The position numbers and the translations under genes are program-made. A stretch of 20,000 nt of DNA from Folioceros fuciformis (lineage: Eukaryota): NCBI GenBank assembly GCA_049999805.1, contig JBNGIO010005877.1:60728-80727 (forward strand). Reading direction: 5' to 3'. Below the pieces are notes generated by a model, which was not told the origin of the DNA, ran no database searches, and was given only the letters and a program-made list of their open reading frames with translations. Positions 1 through 20,000 of this stretch are shown piece by piece. Numbering within the stretch: position 1 is the stretch's first letter; every line of letters starts with the position of its first letter.

Positions 1-791
<791 letters not shown>

Positions 792-948
792 TCAGCGGGC
801 AATGCGAGCCGCAAACGCACACGACGCAAGCCGCTGACACCCCGCCAGGCTCGAACCAGCCACCACCAGAAATTCAGATCTGGGAGCAGGGATCCAGAGG
901 AGGACTCGAGGCCGGTGATTATAACACGGACCGCAGCCGCTGCAAGAC

Positions 949-7099: not shown

Positions 7100-8671
7100 A
7101 TGCAGGAAGAAGTGGCCGGCCAGCGGACGGGACGGCAGTGCTGGAGGCGCGTGCTAGATAGAGAGACAAGGTGTATCATATCCAGTCTACGCAAAGGCAG
7201 TAGAGGCAACAAAGGCAAAGGGAAAGGCGAGCAACGCACACGCACACGCAGGGTGCGGCGTCGATTATGGAGCTGGTTGCTGCTATCGAGTGACAGCTGT
7301 GTGCTTTGGCTCTGCTCTTTGGACTGTTGCTTCCCCCTTTTGCAGCCTGTTTTTGGCACGACTGTTGAGTGCTCTGCTCTGACGCGGGCTGACTGCAGAT
7401 CCTTCCTTTCTTGTAGCCGGAATCGGTGTTTACATGCCAAAATTCGGCCACTTCCGGGTGGAAACCCTTGCTCAGCGGCCCTGGAAAAAGTCTGTAAACA
7501 CGATGGCAAAGGAAGGTTGGAAAGGTCAAAACAACCCACCCAGCCTTCCTGGCCCACGGGCAAGAGACACAGATGGCACATGCCCACACAGCATATGTAT
7601 GTAAGTCTATGTGAAAGGCCCAGGCTCAGTCCCTGGGTCAGGTCCAGGCCCAGGGCTCCGGCTCTGCGCCCCCCACCAGTGCTGCAGGGTAGGATGCATG
7701 TACTACTAAAGAGCCAGCGCTAGCCGCCCGGCCAGCGAGACAGCCAGCCAGCCTGCCAGCCTGCCTGCAAGCAAGGCGAGAGAAGGTACAGACAGCAAAC
7801 GCGCAGTGAATGTGATTAAAACATTTCCAAGGCCTGCCGCCTCTCCCCGGGGCCCGGCCGTCCCTCCGCTCAAGTACTTCGTATGCTTCTCCATCCCAGC
7901 GTCCAAGTCCATGTGTGACCTACCCTGCCCCTTTCCGGGGTTGCAGAATTTTGTAAGGTGGTAAGTTGTAACTGCCCTGACCGGGATGGAGCCAAGGCAG
8001 AAGGCACGCAGGCAAGCGGGGACCAGGGTATGTAATGGGAAGGCGTGGGATAGGCTTGGCCCGACGGAGAGGGGCTGTTGTTACCTTTGGGATGGGAGCA
8101 CGGATGCCGTACAGAACACCGAGGACGATCCGGATCCGCATCCGCTTTTCATACATGTTTACAGCTGCTACCTGCAGGCCGGTCATCAGCAGCGAACATC
8201 GCGTGGTATACGATTGGAAACTTGTGATGAGGCTGTTGGGTAACGCCACCCGCAAGGCCCAAGGCACGCGCCTCGGGGATGCCCGAATTCAGTGAGAGTG
8301 GAAGGAAGGGAATGAAGAAACCCTCGTACATGGCCTGGGGGCTGCCAAACTCTGAAAGCTTGCAGATATCGCACACAATGCTTTTGGAATTGTCTTGAAA
8401 AGGTTAGCTACCTCCTTTCCAGACATGGACATGATGGGCAACTCTGCCATGAAAGTTGCAACCGGGTCTAAAATACAACATCCTACAATTCCAATCCCAG
8501 ATGATGCCCCACCAAGTTGCAAACTGTTTGGTTCACCTCTGTGTTCCTCTTTGATAAACGCGGGAAAGTTGGTGTGGCAGCCTTACGTCTCTCTTCTTCA
8601 AACTTTGCGTCGGTGTCACACCACCATTAGCCATACCTCACGTGCTGATAGAAGGCAGAACCGTGTACTGA
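7100..8671 (+). CDS. Putative spliced gene of unknown function (possible exons ..7600, 7947-7960, 8178-8239, 8366-8402, 8581-8671)
   Basis: Strong donors (GTAAGT at 7601 and 7961, GTAACG at 8240, GTTAGC at 8403) and GCAG acceptors join into one frame ending ...MYNFVRWPVISSEHRVVYDWKLVMRLLDIAHNAFGIVLKSLTSLFFKLCVGVTPPLAIPHVLIEGRTVY*. No family is recognised, the start is uncertain and an alternative frame is also open. Confidence 0.3.
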
Positions 8672-9205
8672 GATGAACCAGTAAGAGGACATATCAGAGG
8701 ATGGACGGATGTCGGTTATGATGCATGTGACAAGACTTCAGGCCTCCATCCATGTCGTCAGAACACTGTTCGACAACCGGAAGACCCGTCGTTCTCCAGA
8801 TCTGCGCAGAGGTCTTTTTGGACATGCCGAAAGAGAAAGCAGCACTACAGCCGAGCCTTGCAGGCGGATGTCACACTTTCACAGTGTGGCCTGACTTGGT
8901 GATATACTGGTGTGCAAGAAGACTATGTATGGAGGTGAATATAGATCGAGGACAGCATCGCGATAATGATAGAGTATGCACATACATGACACTGTTGGCT
9001 TACCTTAACGACGCCCAAAACAAAACTTTTTTCAAAGCTAATATAAGATGATGCAGGACTACTCACCAGAGGATGGACCAGCCCAACACTTGCAGCTGCT
9101 TGACAGCTGCACAGTCGTCAGTCTGACAACCCCGGATGCGCAGCATGACTCCCATTATTTCTCGTCGGATAGGTTGTCCATGGTCCATGGCCAGGATTGT
9201 ACAGG

Positions 9206-11402
9206 TTATATGCAACACCTGCCACACAGACCCGTCTCCTGATCGTCCGTAGTGGACACTACAGCAGCGCCTTGTACGCCTGTTAACCACTTCCCAATGA
9301 ACAGCTGGGACGAAATCCTGGCATTGCCCTGATCCTGCAGGCATCTCCCCATGTCAGTAACCATTGGAGATCACCTCCTTGGACATTCAAACCCGCAAAG
9401 TTATCAGCAGCAAAAAGACATCTGCACCAGGAGAGACATGTACATGAGGTCGAATGTTGGATATTGCTACAATTCCGTAGTTTCGGGACCTGGTCCAACG
9501 ATGATGACTGAACGAGAATCCCTTCTTAAGGTGCTCAGCTCTTCCGGCTGCTCGCAAGAGGAAGTACGCGGACTTGGGCAGTGGACGGTTGGCAATGGCG
9601 CTAGTTGTAAGCTGGCAAAACTTCACTTCGTTGTCTTTGGAAATTCTTGAATGGCCACCGCAGTGGACATCCCCTGAAGGAAAGAACGCTGAGATAGGCC
9701 ATAGTGCACGACAACACTTGTACCGGGGATGTGAAGTCTACGCCCAAGACGAAAGGAAGAGAATGAGTGAAGAAAGATATAACACACCTCCCAAAACCAG
9801 AAGTTCGCGCCCATTCGAAGAGGATTTCCAGGTGCAAAGTGCTTCGCAGAACTCTATCTGCTCTTTGACATGAGCGGGATCTGACCAATGACCTTTGAAA
9901 TCTTGCAAGCGTTGCACAGCTCTCCCTAAAACAAACGTGAAACCAGAATCTAGGAAGACGAGGGGAGCTGGGGAGCACACCAACAGGGCACGAACGTTGT
10001 CAAAGAGCCCTCCAGGGCCAAGGCATTTGTGGAGATCATCCCACTGCCGAGATCCTAGATATGGTTTGGGATCGCCCTCCTGCCGGTGAAAGGACCGAGA
10101 CCCCCGAATATCAACAAACAGGTACCCCACTCCTCCTATCACATGGTAGTGGTAGTCCTGCAGAGCCAAGCCAAGTGTTAGGGGCAGGAAGCAAACCGCA
10201 TGCCTTCCAACAACTAGTAACTAGCACTGACTTACCTTGTCTATAGAATCCAACTTCTGAAAATCCACGTCCTCGTGCAGTTGCCTCTGGTACTCGAGAT
10301 TCACTATCCAGGCACACCGTGCGACGAAGAACTCGACATTGCTAGTATTTGCGTGCTCTTTGCTATCACCCCAGTTGTCCTGCACCTCGTGATCATCATA
10401 AATCATTAGGTTGGGACAATTGGCAAGGCAGGAAGCAGTTGGGAGATGGCCCCATGTCTGTCTGTACACTTCCCTGTACTTCTCAAGAATGGCCTGCTCC
10501 TTCTGTTTCCACTGCTCTGATGGCAGATCCTTGAGCAAGGCCATGGACAGCTTAAACCTGTCCGACCACTCGTCATAGTGCCCCTCCCCGATCCCATTAT
10601 CCATCAGCTTATCGCCATCTCCATAGATCTAAAAGACACCAACCTCTTAGAGTCGGGCAGCCAGCCAGTAAGGACAAGAGTGGAAACGAACGCTTTTCCC
10701 CCACCTGATCACCAAGATGCACCAGCTGATCCACACCCCCACCCTTAATCGCCGTCTCAAGATGAGCCCAAAGATCAGAACGCGGAGGAATATCCTGCTC
10801 TGTCACAAAAATCTTGTTGCAGCTAATAACTCCCACGGTCACACCACTCTCATCCGGCTCCGAAGGAAACGTTCTAAAACTCGCGGGAATCGAGCCCCGN
10901 NNNNNNNNNNNNNNNNNNNNNNNNNNNNNNNNNNNNNNNNNNNNNNNNNNNNNNNNNNNNNNNNNNNNNNNNNNNNNNNNNNNNNNNNNNNNNNNNNNNA
11001 CTTGGTAGCTGGCACAAGCCCTCCAATCTGAAACACCTCCGCCCTGCCACCCGCCAGAATCTTCTCCACCAACACCGGCTTGTGGTTGGGCCCAATTTCT
11101 CGCGGCCGTCGAAGCCTGACCTCAGGTCGCCAAGTGGCACGGCGGGTGAGGCTCCGCGCCAGCTCGGGCTCCCGCACTGGCGTCAGCTTTATCTTCACAA
11201 TCCCTGGCTTGTCCACCTCGATCAAGATGCGTGCCGTGGTATCCGTGACCTTCCCAATCACAGGCCCAACCTTAATCTCCCCCGGCACTCTCGACTTCAA
11301 CGCCCTTCGAAGAATCTTCACCACGCCCCGTCTTGCGACAGCCTTCCATCCGAACTGAAATCTCACACCTTCCCGCAGTTCAGGGACTTCCGTCTGGGCC
11401 AT
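9206..11402 (-). CDS. PhoD-like (alkaline phosphatase D / metallophosphoesterase) protein; exons 11402-10705 (contains N gap), 10628-10236, 10157-9788, 9673-9444, 9334-9206
   Basis: The N-terminal GPVIGKVTDTTARILIEVD is followed by PhoD motifs in the correct order: ISCN, LVHLGDQIYGD, NLMIYDDHEVQDNWG, LFVDIRGSR, LGGDVHCG, QLTTSAI and RNYGIV. Four phase-compatible GT-AG introns (76, 78, 114 and 109 bp). There is an in-frame stop just upstream of ATG 11402. Confidence 0.9.
10900..10999. other. Assembly gap (100 N) within PhoD exon 1
   Basis: Run of 100 N. The apparent frame change across it reflects the placeholder length. Confidence 0.99.
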
Positions 11403-12021
11403 CCCGGGAATTTATGCCTTTTCCTCCTTCCCGCCCTGCCCTCACTATCGCTGGAGCCTCGGAAGGACTGCTAGTAAGACACTCCACGGTATCAGCCGGG
11501 AGAGAGCAATGCCCAGGAGTGAACTCCGAGCGGACAACCCACTAGAGTAAGAATTGTCGACCGTCGATGGCCTCCCAGGACGAACGGCATTTCCGACCTG
11601 TTCCCGACAAGCCTTAAGAACGTTGCGGGCTAGAAGTTGCAGTATACAGAATTGGAGCTCGATGAGTAGAGCATTGCCGAGATGTTGGTCAAACAAACGG
11701 TAGGACCGAAAGAGTCGGTTAAGAACTTAGGGGATCCAGCTGGGTCTAAGCAGCCGGCACTCGACGGCATCGCCTGCCGCACATGGTATATGCCTGTGAT
11801 CTTCAAAAGATGCGCATGGATCAACGAAGCCAACGGCATTTTTCCAGAGCAGACCATCCATTGCCAAGCCCCCCGTCGAGCATGTGTAACTCCTGATAGT
11901 TTTGAAATGAGCAACACACGGCCGTGCGTAAGCCGCAATTTCGTTTAGATGTATGCGTAGTGATGTGGAAACCATCGGGAGGAATGTATGGCATACAGCC
12001 ATATCATGGCCACACTTAGCT

Positions 12022-13260: not shown

Positions 13261-13702
13261 TGATTGTTGAGGAGACATAACCACAAGAGGCACTGACGTG
13301 CAAGGATGAGCAAAAGTGCTACAAGGGGGCAAGGAGGAAGGGGGAGTAGGTTCATGTATATATATAGGGTGACCAACTCCTACATTGGTATGCGCGTATA
13401 TTCCTGCAACAATGCACTCAAATGCCTCCCCTTGGGTGCTTCCTCCCCATCGTGCACACCAAGGCTGCTGGTCATCATTTCACTCTTTGGTGGCTCGCTT
13501 CACATATACTCCTTCTCCCTCGATACGAGCGGGTGATCACAACTGGTGATGTGCAAATGTCTCCTCTTGTCGTGCACACCAAGGCTATTGGTCATCATTC
13601 CACTCTTTGGTGGCTCACTTCACAAGAGATCAACGAAAGGAGCAACTTCTCTACTCCTTCTCTCTTGATGCAAATGGGACATAATACATCTCAGGATCAT
13701 CA
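13261..13702 (-). mobile_element. 3' LTR of the Ty3/Gypsy element (left boundary tentative)
   Basis: On the minus strand TGATGATCC starts immediately after the polypurine tract. It contains a TATA-like TATATATATA (13357-13366) and an internal ~54-bp direct repeat (about 13451-13504 and 13570-13624). A plausible terminus ...CAACAATCA lies at 13261 (TGAT...ATCA). Confidence 0.6.
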
Positions 13703-13713
13703 CCTCTCCCCTT
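13703..13713 (-). promoter_or_regulatory. Polypurine tract (PPT) of the LTR retrotransposon
   Basis: AAGGGGAGAGG on the minus strand abuts the TG start of the LTR, downstream of the integrase/PHD coding region. Confidence 0.75.
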
Positions 13714-14804
13714 AATTTGCTACCCAACTTTTGTCGACAAGATAGATTAACAAAAGTGTTCATACAATTCATTACACACCATCATCCTCAATCTACCTCA
13801 ATCAGGACACAATGTTCTTCTCATAATGTATCAATTGTAGCACACATTGGACAAAACCACTACCATGGTGGTTCCAGGCATAAATATATCATTCATCATT
13901 GCATCTATCACACAACAAAATGCAATGATCACTACCCGGATCATTCATCATTGCATCTATCACACAACAACATGCAATGATCACTACCCGAGTCTCCACA
14001 CCCTGTACAAGAAAATCCCTTCCCTTCCTTGGTATAAAAGCTTGTACATTAATGGCCGAATTCAAGTGAGGTAAATGGCACGTTGCACAATTCTTCGTGT
14101 GTTCCAAACAAGTTGTACCATCCCTTGCTTCAAGCTTCAAGACTCCATTTGGCTTCACATTCCTCACCCTCGATATTATCCTGCTGGCACTTGTGTTAAC
14201 TATTGTCAACATCTTTCTCTGTAAGTACACATAATCTCCTACTTCAAATTTCCTTATTTTAGGTTTGAAATGACACTCCTTGTTTTCCTATATCTTTTAG
14301 GTTTGAAATGACCACTTCTTGTTTTCCTATATCTCAACTCATCTCTATGTTGAGCTATCAACAAGTTCTCCATTGCCATAGGCATAACCCTCTTGAACAA
14401 CTCTGCCCTATGCTTGATTATCTTTAACCATTGATTGGGATCATCCAACTCCATGGTAGTGTTCACCTTGTCCTCTAACATTCTAGACAATTGTGGCCTT
14501 CGCTCAAACAATAACATGTAAGGTGAAAACTTTCTCAAAGACGCTTGTCTACTCATCCTATAACCCATTGCAAGGAAAGGTAACATTCTATCCCACTCAT
14601 TCTTGTCCATTACCAAGCAATATTTTCTCAGTGTTATCTTACATGTTTGCACCATCCTTTTCATTAAACCATCAGCTTCTAGATGATTCCTAGAAGTGAC
14701 CCTTAGATCAATAAGATACTCATTTAAAAGTTCATCAAATTCCTTCATAAACTCCGTGCCTTCATCTATTAAAACTTTTGCACAAGCTCCAAACACACTC
14801 AAAT

Positions 14805-14904
14805 NNNNNNNNNNNNNNNNNNNNNNNNNNNNNNNNNNNNNNNNNNNNNNNNNNNNNNNNNNNNNNNNNNNNNNNNNNNNNNNNNNNNNNNNNNNNNNNN
14901 NNNN
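14805..14904. other. Assembly gap (100 N) within the integrase
   Basis: Run of 100 N adjacent to a tandem array. Confidence 0.99.
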
Positions 14905-15104
14905 AAAACTATTCATTTTGAGAAATGTTCTATCATTACTAATAAAAACTATTCATTTTGAGAAATGTTCTATCATTACTAATAAAAACTATTCATTTTG
15001 AGAAATGTTCTATCATTACTAATAAAAACTATTCATTTTGAGAAATGTTCTATCATTACTAATAAAAACTATTCATTTTGAGAAATGTTCTATCATTACT
15101 AATA
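14905..15104. repeat. Tandem array, 5 identical copies of a 40-bp unit
   Basis: AAAACTATTCATTTTGAGAAATGTTCTATCATTACTAATA x5. The reverse complement encodes the integrase segment LVMIEHFSK*IV. Confidence 0.97.
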
Positions 15105-15910
15105 TATATTTGAATCCTCTGTGAGGGACTGGTAACTCTCCAACCAAATCCAAACTCCACCTATAAAATATTCCCCTGATACATATCGAGTGAAGCTGAG
15201 AAGTTTTACCTAAAAACTTTCTTTCACCCTATCACGCACCTCACAAGTAGATAACACCTTCTCTACTACGTCCATCATTCCCTTCCAATAATAATTATTC
15301 ATAAACAAACTTAATGTTCTCTTTGTATTAAAATGCTCCAACTCTTTATGGATTTTTCTTGTCAAACTTATCCTGTCTTCGGGTTTAGGCACCACCTTCA
15401 AGTTTTCCTTAAACAACAACTTACTATCAACCCACATGTATCTTCTAGCTCGTTTTATCACTTCATCATTTTCCTTTACAGTCAACATTTCTTATTTCTA
15501 CGTGTCATTATGTGCTCCATTGTATTATGATCCTCCTAAATATCCACTAATATCAAAGAAGATAATGACTCTACAAGATTCACCAGATATGCCCTTGGTG
15601 TCCACCTTGACACCACCAGGTTACATTCCACATATCTTTTTTATCAAAATCTTATATAGCAATCATCGCATCCACCAAACTTCCTCAGCGGATTTGTTGA
15701 CAACACATTTGCATTAGCATGCTTTACCCCTTGCCTGTTAACTTTTCACTTTCATCAACCATTTCAAAGGCTGATGATGAGTAACTAACTCAAATTATGT
15801 TCCATGCAAGTATGGTATAAAATGCGACACCGCCCACACTAGCGTCAAACACTCCCCATGATATGACGAGTAATTGCTCTTAGCAGAATTGTTACTCCTA
15901 CTTCCATAAG

Positions 15911-16489
15911 TGTAGAACATGCGTTTCGTACGGCTAGTACTTAGGGCGGAGCCTATAGGAGAAGGATGAGGGGAGAAGGGATGAAGGAAGAAGAGGAGAC
16001 ACGGTGGAAGTAGGAGCAAAGGGATGAGGGGAGAAGAGGAGACATGTCTCCATCCACTACACGCTCCTCGAGCTCCTATGTTGACTAGTTCTTTTCTCCA
16101 AGCCAGCGATGTTGAGGTCATCAGTGTTTGTTGAGGTCACCTTGAGGGACTCCTGTTGGTTAGCAAGTACCTCCAGGGACTCCTTTCCGATTACCCCTTG
16201 GGCTTAGAGAGGGGCACTAGGCCACCCCTTGGGCTTAGAGAGGGGCACTAGGCCAACTGCTAGAAAACCCTTGACCACCTGCTCCGAGATGGTAGCACAC
16301 ATGCTAGCCAACGGGGTCCTCCGCTTTCCTTAAAGGGGAGGTCCCCTCCGTGGCCAAGAGCTGGGAGAAATGGCTATGTCTAACTAAAGCGAAGGGCTTC
16401 TTATGGACGGAGGCCACCGCTACCGACGGCGCTTGGCGTCCTTGTAGCTGCAAAGGCCTTCTAGCTACCTTTGCAGCTACTTACTGACA
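15911..16489. mobile_element. LTR-like non-coding insert truncating the Gypsy RNase H
   Basis: It begins TGTAGAACA where RNase H similarity stops and ends ...ACTGACA (TG...CA). It has purine-rich tracts and a 31-bp tandem duplication (16193-16254). No target-site duplication was found. Confidence 0.35.
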
Positions 16490-16793
16490 CCGTGTAAGAT
16501 GCTTACACCTATCTAAATCGATACCACACATAGCACACTAATTATAGAGTCCCGCCGCGCACCCGACTCTATTAAGACGAGTGAATTTTTGGGCGGGAAG
16601 GCCACTCCACCACTCTCATTTCGGCTAAGGAATCCTAGGCCGGTCTTGGAAAATCCTGCCACCCGATCTTCTGAGATGCTGCCTTGCTGCCACACTCTGC
16701 CACGGTGAACCGGAGCCACCACCAGCGCTGTCACCACTAATGGAGGTTCCGAGGAATTCCCTCGTTCCGAATTTCCCTGGTTATCTCCTTGGC

Positions 16794-16913
16794 CCAAGAT
16801 AACGCAGTAAAGCTGCGTGTAGCCAAGCCAGACCAAGATAACGCAGTAAAGCTGCGTGTAGCCAACCAGACCAAGATAACGCAGTAAAGCTGCGTGTAGC
16901 CAACCAAGCCAGA
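16794..16913. repeat. Three tandem ~38-43-bp units, each with an internal hairpin
   Basis: CCAAGATAACGCAGTAAAGCTGCGTGTAGCCAA...CCAGA starts at 16794, 16833 and 16871. Each unit has the stem ACGCAG/CTGCGT with a 5-nt loop. Confidence 0.95.
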
Positions 16914-17399
16914 CACGCTCGACAGCCAGCTCCTTTGTCGTACACTGCTGATATAATTCAGGAGCGCTTTCAATTTCCTTGATTTTACCGTTCCTGGATT
17001 CCGATGATCATTGCAGATCCCCCTTCCCGTCCTTCGCTCCCCACGGCACCAACGGGTTACGGCACAGGCTCGTCCAGCAATCGTGTCCAGCATCGGATCG
17101 TAGAGTAGCCTCAGGTCCGTTGGGAAAACACAACAGACAAGGCACCGCTCCCCTTGTGCGTCCGTCAACCTGGTCATCAAGTCCCCAAATGGAAGGCGAG
17201 AGCTCTGAGAGCCCGCTGCCAGCGATCCTCCCGGCCAGGCACCCCTTGATCACGGGCCCGGCCACAGCACCGTTGGCTTCGTAGATTCAATGCAAACACC
17301 AACTCGAGAAACGCGGTGGAACAGAGAGCGCCGACAGGCCGCTGTTTCTGCTTCCGACTCTGGTGCGTGGGATCCCGATGGACGCCTACCTACTTGACG

Positions 17400-18375
17400 T
17401 ATCCGTGAGCAGATGCTCGCAGCGATCAGCAAGTTGGCACATCCCGGAAACCACCGCGCTCGTGTCTATCTCCCGCGCTCCGACATGCGCACTGTGATCC
17501 TGAGCTCCTTCTCCGCTAGCTTGCCCTGAAACAAGGCGCACAGCAGCTCCAGAAGCTCACCGATGTGAAAGTCTGACACTTCCAGGGTGAACTGCCTAGA
17601 CTAGATTGCAGAGACGTCGAGGATCTCATCCAGAACCTACAGGTGGACAAGGTTCCCCAACGGAATGCGCACTGATTCTGCCATAAGCACGGGTGCATCC
17701 TTGGTCTGCAACAGGCGCAAGTGGAGCAACAGGTAGATCAGCCGCGAATTGGCTCATCCTGAGCCAGGGCCTGGAATAGGGTCACGGTCTTGGATGGCCG
17801 CGGTGGGCTGTTGGATGGCGATCCAGGCCTCCGGAATGCGGTCGCAAGGAAATTCAGGGGCCAGTTGGTGAGAGGGGAAGAATCCGGGGTTCGATGCCCA
17901 CCGCAAATCCTCCTTGCCAATGTTGGGCTATCGCAGCACCTCCAGATGTGGTTAGAACACTCCGCAGGCCCGCTGTAGCAGCTCCACGACCCGCATATCG
18001 AAGAACTCCTGCATCGCCTTGCTGCAAGCACCGCCGTAGGATCAACACTGCAGGTCCCATATCCCCTAAATCGGGGCCAAGAAGACGACCGCCAGTGGAA
18101 ACGTAAGTGCACCGGACCCGCCCCCAGCGCTGGCCTGCACCTCGTAGTCACTGAAGTCCGGATCGCACTAGACGGAACGCAGAATGGCCTTCCTGTACTT
18201 AGCACGACGTCGATGATGACTGCGCACGGGTGCTTGCTGTATGACCACCATTTTCTTGCCTTGCTCCAATTTCCCTAGAACCTGGAGCTACTACCCGGCG
18301 AGCATGGCTTTCTTGTGATCGCTGGAAAGGATACACGACAGCATCGTGTCCAGCACGGGAAACCAGATCCCCGCA
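17400..18375 (-). pseudogene. Decayed two-component histidine-kinase-like sequence
   Basis: One frame reads NLVHL*VLDEILDVSAI*SRQFTLEVSDFHIGELLELLCALFQGKLAEKELRITV...CANLL (17654-17427). This resembles the HisKA C-terminal helix, linker and N-box of plant histidine kinases (LLNDILDLSKIESGKL.LE...F....LE.L..LF...; QIFANL). There are 11 in-frame stops, 8 of them TAG. Confidence 0.5.
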
Positions 18376-18409
18376 TATTTTGACTCTAAAGATCTAATCA
18401 ATCCCACCT

Positions 18410-18596
18410 CTTGCAACTCTTGACACTTGTCCTTTGCAATTGTCTAATTAACTTCATCTAGATCACAATAAATGAAACGCTTGACTGCAAACCCAGCAGC
18501 TAGCACAACCTCCAAACAAGATGCAATTCCAGCAAACAACTCAACCACAACCAATCCATGCAGAGACGAACTCAAAGTCACAAGTTTATTACACAT
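18410..18596 (-). pseudogene. C5-cytosine DNA methyltransferase N-terminal fragment (motif I region), retrotransposon-type
   Basis: MCNKLVTLSSSLHGLVVVELFAGIASCLEVVLAAGFAVKRFIYCDLDEVN*TIAKDKCQELQ. VELFAGI corresponds to the SAM-binding motif I, followed by the helix and the motif II strand ending in an acidic residue (FIYCD). It is below the ORF-track cutoff, and the catalytic PC motif is absent because of truncation. Confidence 0.7.
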
Positions 18597-18911
18597 AGGT
18601 CCAATTTACTTATCGGCTTTATACAGGCCTGAATCTTATATCTAGCTGAAATTCAATCTGCCTCTTTTCAAGAAAATGCTAGCAGTGGGACAGGGATTGC
18701 GGCACCTGATGTTGGAGGTACAACTAACTTAAAAATTGGTGCTGGGGTCTCACGCACGTGGCAACAAAGGGACGAGGCCAAAGCTAAGACTACATCCAAT
18801 GTAGAGAATGTGTCTGTCTTAGAGGCCACTGTTGTAGCATTATCTTCAAAGCTGGGTGCGCTTATAGCAATCTTACTAGTGGAGCAAGCTCACCCAAGCC
18901 AGCCGATGCTA

Positions 18912-20000
18912 TTTTTTTCGCGAAAAAAATTCTGATTAAATTGGCAAATACCTCCCACTACAATACAAAGGGAAAGTCCTGCTAACGTATGTACAAAAAC
19001 CAAGCAGAGAGGGTGAGAACTAGCCTTGAGTCCAAGACTCAAAACAAGGCGCTCAGAGAGCACTCCCCTACACTATGATACCCTCGAACTGCTAAAGCCA
19101 CTTATACTCACCCTCAAGGTCTCCCATGGACTTTAAGACTAATCATCCCTAGGGGCACGAATGATTCCACCACGTATCTTTCCCAGATGCCAGGAATCCC
19201 GCCATCCTCCAGTCTTTCCGCTTAAACTGCTTCCGACAGGATTGCTCCCAAGCTTCTGCTGCAATCAACAAACGCTCCCATATGTGCCACATCAAAGCTT
19301 TCGATGAAGTTGAATCTTGTCCTCCATAGACCACCACAGACCAGTTGACCCAGAGATGGAGAAGGCAAGAAGACCACAGTAAGCCCCACCATTGTGTTTT
19401 AAGGAGAAATTTGCCCGAGGTTGCGTCCAGCCCAAATAAGGCTGATTGTGACGTGATCCTGAGGTTAGCACCAGGAAAAATCAAACAAAGCCACATGCCA
19501 ACCTCCCTCCAGATCTCTTGGGCAAAGCTACAATGATAGAACGTGTGTTGGCTCTTGTTTGGGGCCCTAGCGGTGCACAGTCGACACACATCCTCCCCCG
19601 TTGCAGCTAAAAGCCCATCCCACTGATTCGCTTTAGGCAAGCACGCTTGAAAAAAACACCAAACTATAGACCTGACCCTAGGGGGGATTCCTGTGGACTT
19701 CCATAGAAGTTTGATGGCTTCCCTTTGGCGCCGTCTAGCGAGTTGCAATCGGGGAGCCATTGGCTGTCGTTGCTTGATTTTCTGTGCTCGCTCTAACCAA
19801 AGGAACAAGTCCGCCGTAGGGAAGTTGAAGAAAGATCGAGAGATAGCCTTCTTGCACCCTAGACACCTAGGCCATTTGTAGAGATCTGGTCTAAAGGTCA
19901 GAGTCCAATTCTCGCCCAGTCGGAACCAACACTGAACCTTTGCTTTATCGGAGGGTAGTGGCCCAATTGGGTGTTCGCCTGGGATGCACCATCGCCCTAC
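18912..20000 (-). mobile_element. L1-type LINE, 3' end of ORF2 (zf-RVT) plus 3' UTR and short poly(A)
   Basis: The frame is open from 20000 to the stop at 19149 and includes LLWKSTGIPPRVRSIVW...CRLC...SQHTFYHCSFAQEIW...LW (CCHC-type zf-RVT). A T-rich 3' UTR ends TTAATCAGAATTTTTTTCGCGAAAAAAA at about 18912. Confidence 0.88.

Follow-up and report, generated by a model that had tools for sequence, protein, structure and literature searches.

The minus strand of a 20,000-nucleotide stretch of Folioceros fuciformis DNA (hereafter the window; contig C5877, positions 60728-80727 of an 87-Mb assembly in 7240 contigs) carries pieces of a DNA methyltransferase (DNMT) and of a Ty3/Gypsy retrotransposon with a PHD finger, which raises the question of whether these are the remains of one element and, if so, what a Gypsy element does with a methyltransferase and a chromatin reader. 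The window holds a dead copy from a Gypsy lineage encoding Gag, protease (PR), a DNMT3-type methyltransferase, reverse transcriptase (RT), RNase H (RH), integrase (IN) and a PHD finger; for this lineage we propose a mechanism below, in a reading that we consider probable as a whole. It is a new relative of a known kind, because a Gypsy element with a DNMT3 has been described (de Mendoza et al. 2018, PMC5890265) and algal Gypsy elements with a PHD finger have been reported too.

A rearranged Gypsy copy and its relatives

A first-pass annotation of the locus had listed, on the minus strand, a DNMT piece, an interruption, RH, IN, a PHD finger, a polypurine tract (PPT) and a terminal repeat, and all of these were located as listed (Table 1). 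Its suggestion that the DNMT and pol pieces belong to one element also stands. The DNMT, RT, RH-IN and IN pieces of the window all show ~70-83% identity to one set of eight copies elsewhere in the genome, and because of this, and because the DNMT is fused directly to the RT of that family, we read them as one element, not two. We call the window copy's own family W and a sister family with an open frame A; the window pieces have no DNA-level match in the sister families. The eight copies come from 20 genome stretches, a partial sample to which the family census refers. In these eight, both window pieces matched and DNMT, RT and IN lay in order, with a PHD finger in five; the other stretches comprised one with the pieces inverted, five with the DNMT side but without IN, one with the IN side only, four of the sister family and one short contig tail without a match.

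The DNMT peptide originally read at 18596-18410 proved to be a chimera, in which family DNMT DNA extends to ~18433 and the remainder belongs to an RT remnant (18432-18373). RT had been thought lost or replaced, and most of it is indeed gone from this copy; it is not wholly lost, because the 60-bp remnant stays, and the family keeps its RT. The remnant starts at about residue 1449 of the intact sister open reading frame (ORF), and the DNMT-RT fusion corresponds to a ~1.3-kb deletion relative to the copy on C2927. The DNMT piece itself is 72-82% identical in DNA to family-W copies and covers columns 1-41 of our DNMT alignment; Pfam run on this piece by itself returned no family. The window DNMT peptide has 76 matching places in the genome (109 candidates), and the window integrase 150 scored matches (307 candidates). 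At the 3' side, what had been taken for a conventional long terminal repeat (LTR) is instead one half, B, of a split repeat, from which the CA-ending terminus of the family is missing, and an element end at 13261 is unsupported.

The foreign DNA between the RT remnant and RH yielded 45 genome matches; leaving aside the window's match to itself and matches to the RT remnant in the first 50 bases, these are partial and none was seen in family W. A histidine-kinase origin of the decayed gene-like frame at 17472-18371, suggested by a faint likeness, was considered and found unsupported (no Pfam match, best PDB E 0.54). Three junctions are bridged without differences by contigs of a DNA run (16877-18558; 15273-16185) that may be the window's source sample. 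Contigs of an RNA run, which five spliced joints show to be RNA indeed, give zero cover on the pol and DNMT pieces of the window; low-depth contigs of the same run cover parts of the insert.

With 2.5 kb of foreign DNA between the pieces, an unrelated inverted fragment upstream (opposite in orientation to the window copy's pol) and a target duplication that is unreadable for this copy, one might instead suppose that two adjacent insertions of the same family supplied the DNMT piece and the pol pieces respectively. We regard this as very improbable, given that the pieces lie on the same strand in the right order, do not overlap in family coordinates, are similarly identical to the same copies and meet in a direct DNMT-RT fusion. 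On its element anatomy, the window is almost certainly a single dead, rearranged Ty3/Gypsy copy.

No intact frame was found among the family-W copies examined. The intact form of such an element can be read from family A, which has an open frame of 2386 amino acids (aa) on C5196 and near-identical copies at 94-99%. Pfam identifies PR, DNA_methylase (E 2e-4), RVT_1, RNase H, rve and PHD (E 1e-11) in this frame; the N-terminus has no Pfam match, and Gag with a zinc-knuckle-like motif was read from its sequence. The Gag-PR-RT-RH-IN order with a DDE integrase is that of Ty3/Gypsy elements, and the same order is found in family W. No chromodomain (Pfam, E 0.1) and no tyrosine recombinase family (Pfam) was found in the open frame. 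The colinearity of DNMT, RT, RH, IN and PHD that the first-pass annotation proposed to check is thus seen in relatives, and full-length relatives carry the DNMT. The RNA run contains 0.78 of the words sampled from a family-A copy, a hint of transcription. An apparent 3526-aa frame on C5954 was discarded, being a 10-kb N gap.

A third family is young, with copies 99% identical (C6056, C5129, C6306, C25, C6226). It includes several RT-less derivatives whose breakpoints differ, some of which keep a long DNMT-IN-PHD frame (1093 aa, C6056); these are either real non-autonomous elements or assembly artefacts. We rejected the idea of an autonomous RT-less family: RT is present on C1012, and the remaining candidates arose by deletions whose breakpoints differ from copy to copy.

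Table 1. Features of the window copy, followed by its neighbours in the window
Feature	Position	Strand	Remarks
Protease-DNMT linker and N-terminal piece of DNMT3-type C5 methyltransferase	18433..18672	-	motif I ELFAG to motif II; one in-frame stop
RT N-terminus remnant, 60 bp	18373..18432	-	in frame with DNMT piece; 76-88% to family-W RT DNA
Foreign GC-rich DNA, 2464 bp	15909..18372	.	replaces ~0.87 kb of RT + RNase H; mosaic of other repeats plus a decayed gene-like piece
RNase H C-terminal half, frameshifted	15689..15908	-	Pfam RT_RNaseH E 1.1e-7 (15798-15929); 73% to intact ORF residues 1760-1811
Integrase zinc domain and core	14270..15488	-	Integrase_H2C2 E 5e-10; stops, frameshifts, 100-N gap
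40-bp unit repeated ~5x in integrase	14905..15104		beside N gap; possibly assembly artefact
Integrase C-terminal region	14016..14269	-	43% to intact ORF residues 2245-2349
PHD finger, frameshifted	13836..14015	-	broken by 52-bp duplication and stops
52-bp duplication in PHD	13888..13990		possibly assembly artefact
PPT	13703..13718	-	read from sequence; same place before repeat B in family-W copies
Truncated terminal repeat B	13357..13702	-	80-87% pieces to family-W B; similarity stops at 13357
Inverted sister-family fragment (region after Gag)	18673..18904	+	78-80% DNA identity to C5648, C5464; outside this copy
3' end of ORF2 of a long interspersed nuclear element (LINE)	19149..20000	-	zf-RVT, E 2e-9; high copy; upstream of sister-family fragment, reaching contig end
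Expressed multi-exon host gene	8300..11690	-	five spliced joints in RNA run; weak DUF7800 match
N gap	10900..10999		filled with 23 bases by RNA-run contig
Frame of 292 aa	5939..6817	-	no Pfam match; FPF1 likeness presumed
Cytidylyltransferase exons	2..800	-	CTP_transf_like, E 1e-8

The methyltransferase and the PHD finger

The family-A DNMT has 127 matching places in the genome. Scores of family-W copies exceed the Pfam PF00145 (DNA_methylase) cut-off of 22 bits (41.6 bits on C909 and 41.1 on C3145), and that of the family-A frame falls just below it (21.3 bits). Among solved structures, DNMT3A/B come closest (E 1e-9). A structural model built from a 47-row alignment reached a pLDDT of 93, and its top Foldseek match is DNMT3A (E 1.6e-19, TM 0.70/0.83); folding from the single sequence gave a pLDDT of only 37. 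The element DNMT is accordingly modelled with a complete DNMT3 fold. In the motif numbering that we take to apply, motifs I, IV, VI, VIII, IX and X are present in all families of this genome, and the catalytic Cys, the EN and the motif-VIII Arg are invariant in 47 of 47 aligned rows at ~40% identity. The first-pass annotation had asked for ENV in motif VI and PC in motif IV: the EN is kept, and motif IV reads EC in the families of this genome.

Between subfamily pairs the dN/dS ratio of the DNMT is 0.13-0.14, with synonymous sites saturated in five of nine comparisons with the intact copy; it rises to 0.27-0.41 among close family-A copies and to 0.37-0.74 among dead family-W copies. By these ratios the element DNMT is under purifying selection. 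The domain is intronless and lies inside the Pol frame. Host genes occupy separate loci, comprising an intron-bearing DNMT3 (C4480), DRM-like genes with long open frames (C5799, C4599) and CMT-like genes (C6088, C4660); these labels were assigned from motifs that we presume to be diagnostic. Compared with the plant host enzyme PpDNMT3b (PMC6453930), both have a DNMT3-type catalytic domain in unrearranged order, whereas the host gene bears introns and the element version is intronless in Pol, with no DUF3444 in Pfam.

Is the enzyme active? Several observations weigh against it. Motif IV has changed from PC to EC. The observed/expected CpG ratio of the element, 0.34, is close to the 0.43 of a Copia frame without DNMT, so that there is no CG-specific decay beyond this control, and C/T differences within the element are equally frequent at CHG and CG; this decay pattern fits host methylation and bears no mark of the enzyme that the element itself encodes. 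The Klebsormidium DNMT produced no methylation in yeast, a result its authors call inconclusive (PMC5890265). Together with three rows of the chlorophyte clade in our RT tree that have RT-RH-IN-PHD and no DNMT, these points could indicate that the domain serves the particle in a way that is non-catalytic or directed at RNA, for example in binding nucleic acid or S-adenosylmethionine, or in packaging, with anatomy and ancestry unchanged. The catalytic residues, however, are invariant across the 47 rows at ~40% identity, the modelled fold is complete, and PC is retained in the Marchantia and Klebsormidium versions. We therefore think a purely non-catalytic role quite unlikely and an active DNA methylase fairly likely, as far as sequence can tell. 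Its likeliest substrate would be new complementary DNA (cDNA), because the DNMT adjoins RT or integrase in the polyprotein; packaged with RT, it would most likely methylate this cDNA at CG before insertion.

The PHD finger has the full C4HC3 set of eight ligands in many family-W copies and is broken in the window copy. It has no cage tryptophan two residues ahead of the His, and is thus a C4HC3 finger without an aromatic cage. Its best solved relatives are KDM5 PHD1, WSTF, BAZ2, UHRF1/2, ORC1b and ATXR5; the fingers of KDM5 PHD1, BAZ2, UHRF1 and ATXR5 we take to be readers of unmodified H3K4. Carried on the integrase tail, the finger would most likely steer insertion to H3K4-unmethylated chromatin, like the chromodomains of chromoviruses, and a role in guiding integration is in our view somewhat favoured. 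Protease cleavage probably splits the PHD from the DNMT, so a linkage of reader and writer remains putative. Gypsy proteins with a PHD ahead of the integrase and no DNMT also occur outside the DNMT clade, which suggests separate placement of the PHD.

Ancestry among green plants

A search with the DNMT as query found 60 proteins, most of them with RT, RH, IN and PHD; named matches were from Haematococcus, Chlamydomonas eustigma, Monoraphidium and Closterium, and a profile search added gene models of Pleodorina, Tetrabaena and Marchantia. The Marchantia models (MARPO_0008s0049, MARPO_0009s0240 and Mp8g15430) are Gag-PR-DNMT frames annotated as hypothetical proteins. MpDNMT3b as a domesticated element gene is unsupported, the Marchantia matches carrying Gag and protease.

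Two layouts occur, PR-DNMT-RT-RH-IN(-PHD) and RT-RH-DNMT-IN-PHD (46 full rows), and they separate in both the DNMT tree (support 93) and the RT tree (99). All trees are quick searches on single domains, in which most rows are unnamed and half were gathered with the DNMT query. To this we added an RT-RH query blind to the DNMT, which gave 112 new rows from the 120 of 887 matches listed. Among these listed matches, a DNMT is carried by 40 of 53 non-animal rows (one at only 22 bits) and by none of 59 animal-named rows. The RT tree comprises 117 rows, takes in only six animal rows, excludes rows with short RT and has an imperfect outgroup that is not confined to one side of a branch; Marchantia rows, having no RT, were placed by DNMT alone. 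In this tree every one of the 101 DNMT rows, together with five rows that lack a DNMT, falls on one branch (SH-aLRT 98), which unites DNMT-bearing elements from chlorophytes, Klebsormidium, Closterium and the present genome. The layout with DNMT before RT is basal and includes Tetraselmis, and the other is nested within it (support 98).

A Klebsormidium nitens protein, KFL_009030040 (GAQ92009.1), has the order PR-DNMT-RT-RH-IN and is colinear with family A at 39% over 1598 columns. We infer that it is a copy of KnitGypsy-Dnmt3, the Gypsy element of K. nitens with DNMT3 in Pol and DIRS-like repeats (PMC5890265). Its place on the same RT branch (SH-aLRT 98 in the quick tree) and the colinear alignment point to common descent. 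De Mendoza et al. (PMC5890265) regarded KnitGypsy-Dnmt3 as acquired independently by the lineage of K. nitens; a clade that extends across green plants argues against a capture confined to Klebsormidium.

How the DNMT came to be so widespread can be read in two ways. Its occurrence at two positions, the Tetraselmis element with the streptophyte layout, the weakly supported placement of Klebsormidium beside the chlorophyte clade and a DNMT tree without host DNMT3 outgroup would suit repeated horizontal transfer, or two captures of a host DNMT3, one before RT and one before integrase. Yet the DNMTs of both layouts are 36-45% identical to each other and differ in their motifs from this genome's host DNMT3, the second layout nests in the first, and RT and DNMT distances co-vary (r 0.71, 0 of 999 permutations), also within the chlorophyte layout (r 0.42). 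We judge transfer or two captures unlikely, and a single old acquisition of the DNMT by a green-plant element probable.

The first-pass annotation had put the element forward as a land-plant family. The host is a land plant: its genome has seven EPF and 29 dirigent matches, both of which are, to our knowledge, confined to land plants. Two weak exon matches to LCIB together with the presence of YABBY point to a hornwort (PMC8075897). The lineage itself, being that of KnitGypsy-Dnmt3, spans green plants.

The elements described here share with KnitGypsy-Dnmt3 an intronless DNMT3-type domain in a Gypsy Pol, purifying selection and DIRS-like repeats (PMC5890265). They differ in having a land-plant host, several families, and young, near-identical copies. 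They also have a PHD after the integrase; the term is absent from the text and supplements of PMC5890265, and the K. nitens protein model is partial and stops short of this position. We know of no mechanism for the ends in that paper, and it left the role of a DNMT in a Gypsy element open. For two algal Gypsy elements with a PHD, Gypsy-7a_cRei (PMC9940879) and REM1 (cited in PMC6673714), the PHD has been proposed to guide insertion; no methyltransferase is named for either in these sources, and Gypsy-7a is drawn with paired LTRs. Literature searches for plant Gypsy elements with a DNMT gave PMC5890265 only (subscription papers, theses, Repbase and preprint supplements lay outside their scope), and term counts in the text of PMC6317226, PMC8075897, PMC10952607, PMC11982613, PMC6453930, PMC8226300, PMC9940879 and PMC11244446 revealed no DNMT-bearing Gypsy. 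The literature searched contained no account of the range over land plants and chlorophytes, of a single clade, of a relocated DNMT or of the end anatomy.

Element ends and a possible route of integration

Paired LTRs had been expected to flank these elements. Two identical terminal LTRs are absent, and copies instead read A1-ORF-B1/A2.B2 or A-ORF-B, a split layout that recurs in at least three families of this genome. In family A the order is A1 (~466 bp), ORF, PPT, B1 (~111 bp), A2 and B2. Repeat A begins with TG, repeat B finishes with CA, and the B1/A2 joint is a 16-bp palindrome whose degenerate form occurs at 18 sites, against one in the control, and in several families. Several family-A copies agree in the position of the A.B joint, which starts exactly after the PPT. 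A 4-bp target duplication flanks each of the four copies for which both ends could be read, namely two solo A.B units and the copies on C6246 and C5954. Of the 13 3' ends of family W that could be read, 12 finish at B with unique flanks; a 14th was too decayed. The relatives thus show the TG...CA ends, PPT and short target duplication of Ty3/Gypsy elements.

Immediately after A1, bases complement A at position ~231 over 18-21 nt in six of nine copies and over 14 nt in one, with one covarying pair; the third family has a 14-nt complement. The predicted fold shows this primer helix, and no tRNA genes were found in four element stretches.

From these features we propose that the RNA would begin inside A and prime its own reverse transcription in a Tf1-like manner. 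Self-priming and the PPT would set a true repeat of B/A, and the cDNA would carry B/A at both ends; because inserted copies start at A though the true repeat would be B/A, we postulate an internal TG...CA att site. Joining of the cDNA ends into a circle would give the observed A.B joint. The normal substrate of an integrase has recessed CA ends with 2-nt overhangs, and these could be produced if integrase opened one palindrome with a 2-nt stagger after the CA on each strand. Such an opening would yield two normal processed ends and the A-ORF-B/A.B layout, and A-ORF-B and solo A.B copies would follow from recombination between two B or two A repeats.

Part of the evidence speaks against this scheme. 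Random opening of a circle with two repeats should also give the mirror form, whose scarcity therefore counts against it: none of nine family-A 5' ends has this form, and a possible mirror end (A.B/A) was seen once, in the third family on C5845, across a 100-N gap. Of the target duplications, one is located in tandemly repeated sequence and another has a 10-kb N gap between its two copies, the primer-site complement is at chance level in two of nine copies, and the whole 301-nt fragment containing the helix is not unusually stable (z -1.08). A circle may not be needed if A-ORF-B results from trimming of a linear cDNA at its two internal att sites, with B/A.B arising by tandem insertion, unequal recombination or short-read mis-assembly. 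The family-W 3' ends that finish at B, the absence of the mirror form in family A and the division of the assembly into 7240 contigs are all in keeping with this, as are the copies on C6226. Against it, A-ORF-B lacks the repeated R region that another round requires, the A.B joint is constant and begins right after the PPT, and the layout is found in several families here and is reported for Klebsormidium. We regard linear trimming as rather less likely than not, and integration through an opened circle as a tentative proposal that falls somewhat short of an even chance.

On C6226, head-to-tail copies have one common B/A repeat. This shared repeat, or the mirror end on C5845, could reflect circular or tandem intermediates.

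A comparable end structure is known from PAT/Ngaro-type DIRS elements, which have split direct repeats in the order A1-ORF-B1-A2-B2 and are associated with a circular intermediate. The split layout is the same, whereas the elements studied here have a DDE integrase, TG...CA ends and 4-bp duplications and no tyrosine recombinase. With chromoviruses they share a chromatin reader at the integrase C-terminus, and with the Tcn1/Tf1-Sushi group of chromoviruses, which uses no tRNA primer (Neumann et al. 2019, PMC6317226), putative self-priming. Unlike in chromoviruses, a PHD here replaces the chromodomain, a DNMT is added and the repeats are split; the words PHD and methyltransferase do not occur in the main text of PMC6317226. 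Taken to its full extent, our reading would describe a Gypsy lineage of the same age as green plants with an active DNMT3-type writer and a reader of unmethylated H3K4, whose self-methylated circle is opened by a DDE integrase at an internal palindrome in a Gypsy-DIRS hybrid route, and which is young and probably transcribed in a hornwort and annotated as ordinary genes in Marchantia. In this complete form it is rather doubtful.

What survives of the copy in the window is no more than a decayed remnant. If its relatives do form one old clade across chlorophytes, streptophyte algae and bryophytes, a methylase would have been kept by a transposon throughout green-plant history, and DNMT gene counts in these genomes would include transposon frames, such as the three Marchantia models. 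The near-identical open frames provide natural enzymes and reader domains for assay, and the conserved internal palindrome suggests, in a form open to testing, how circular cDNA could be used by a DDE integrase.

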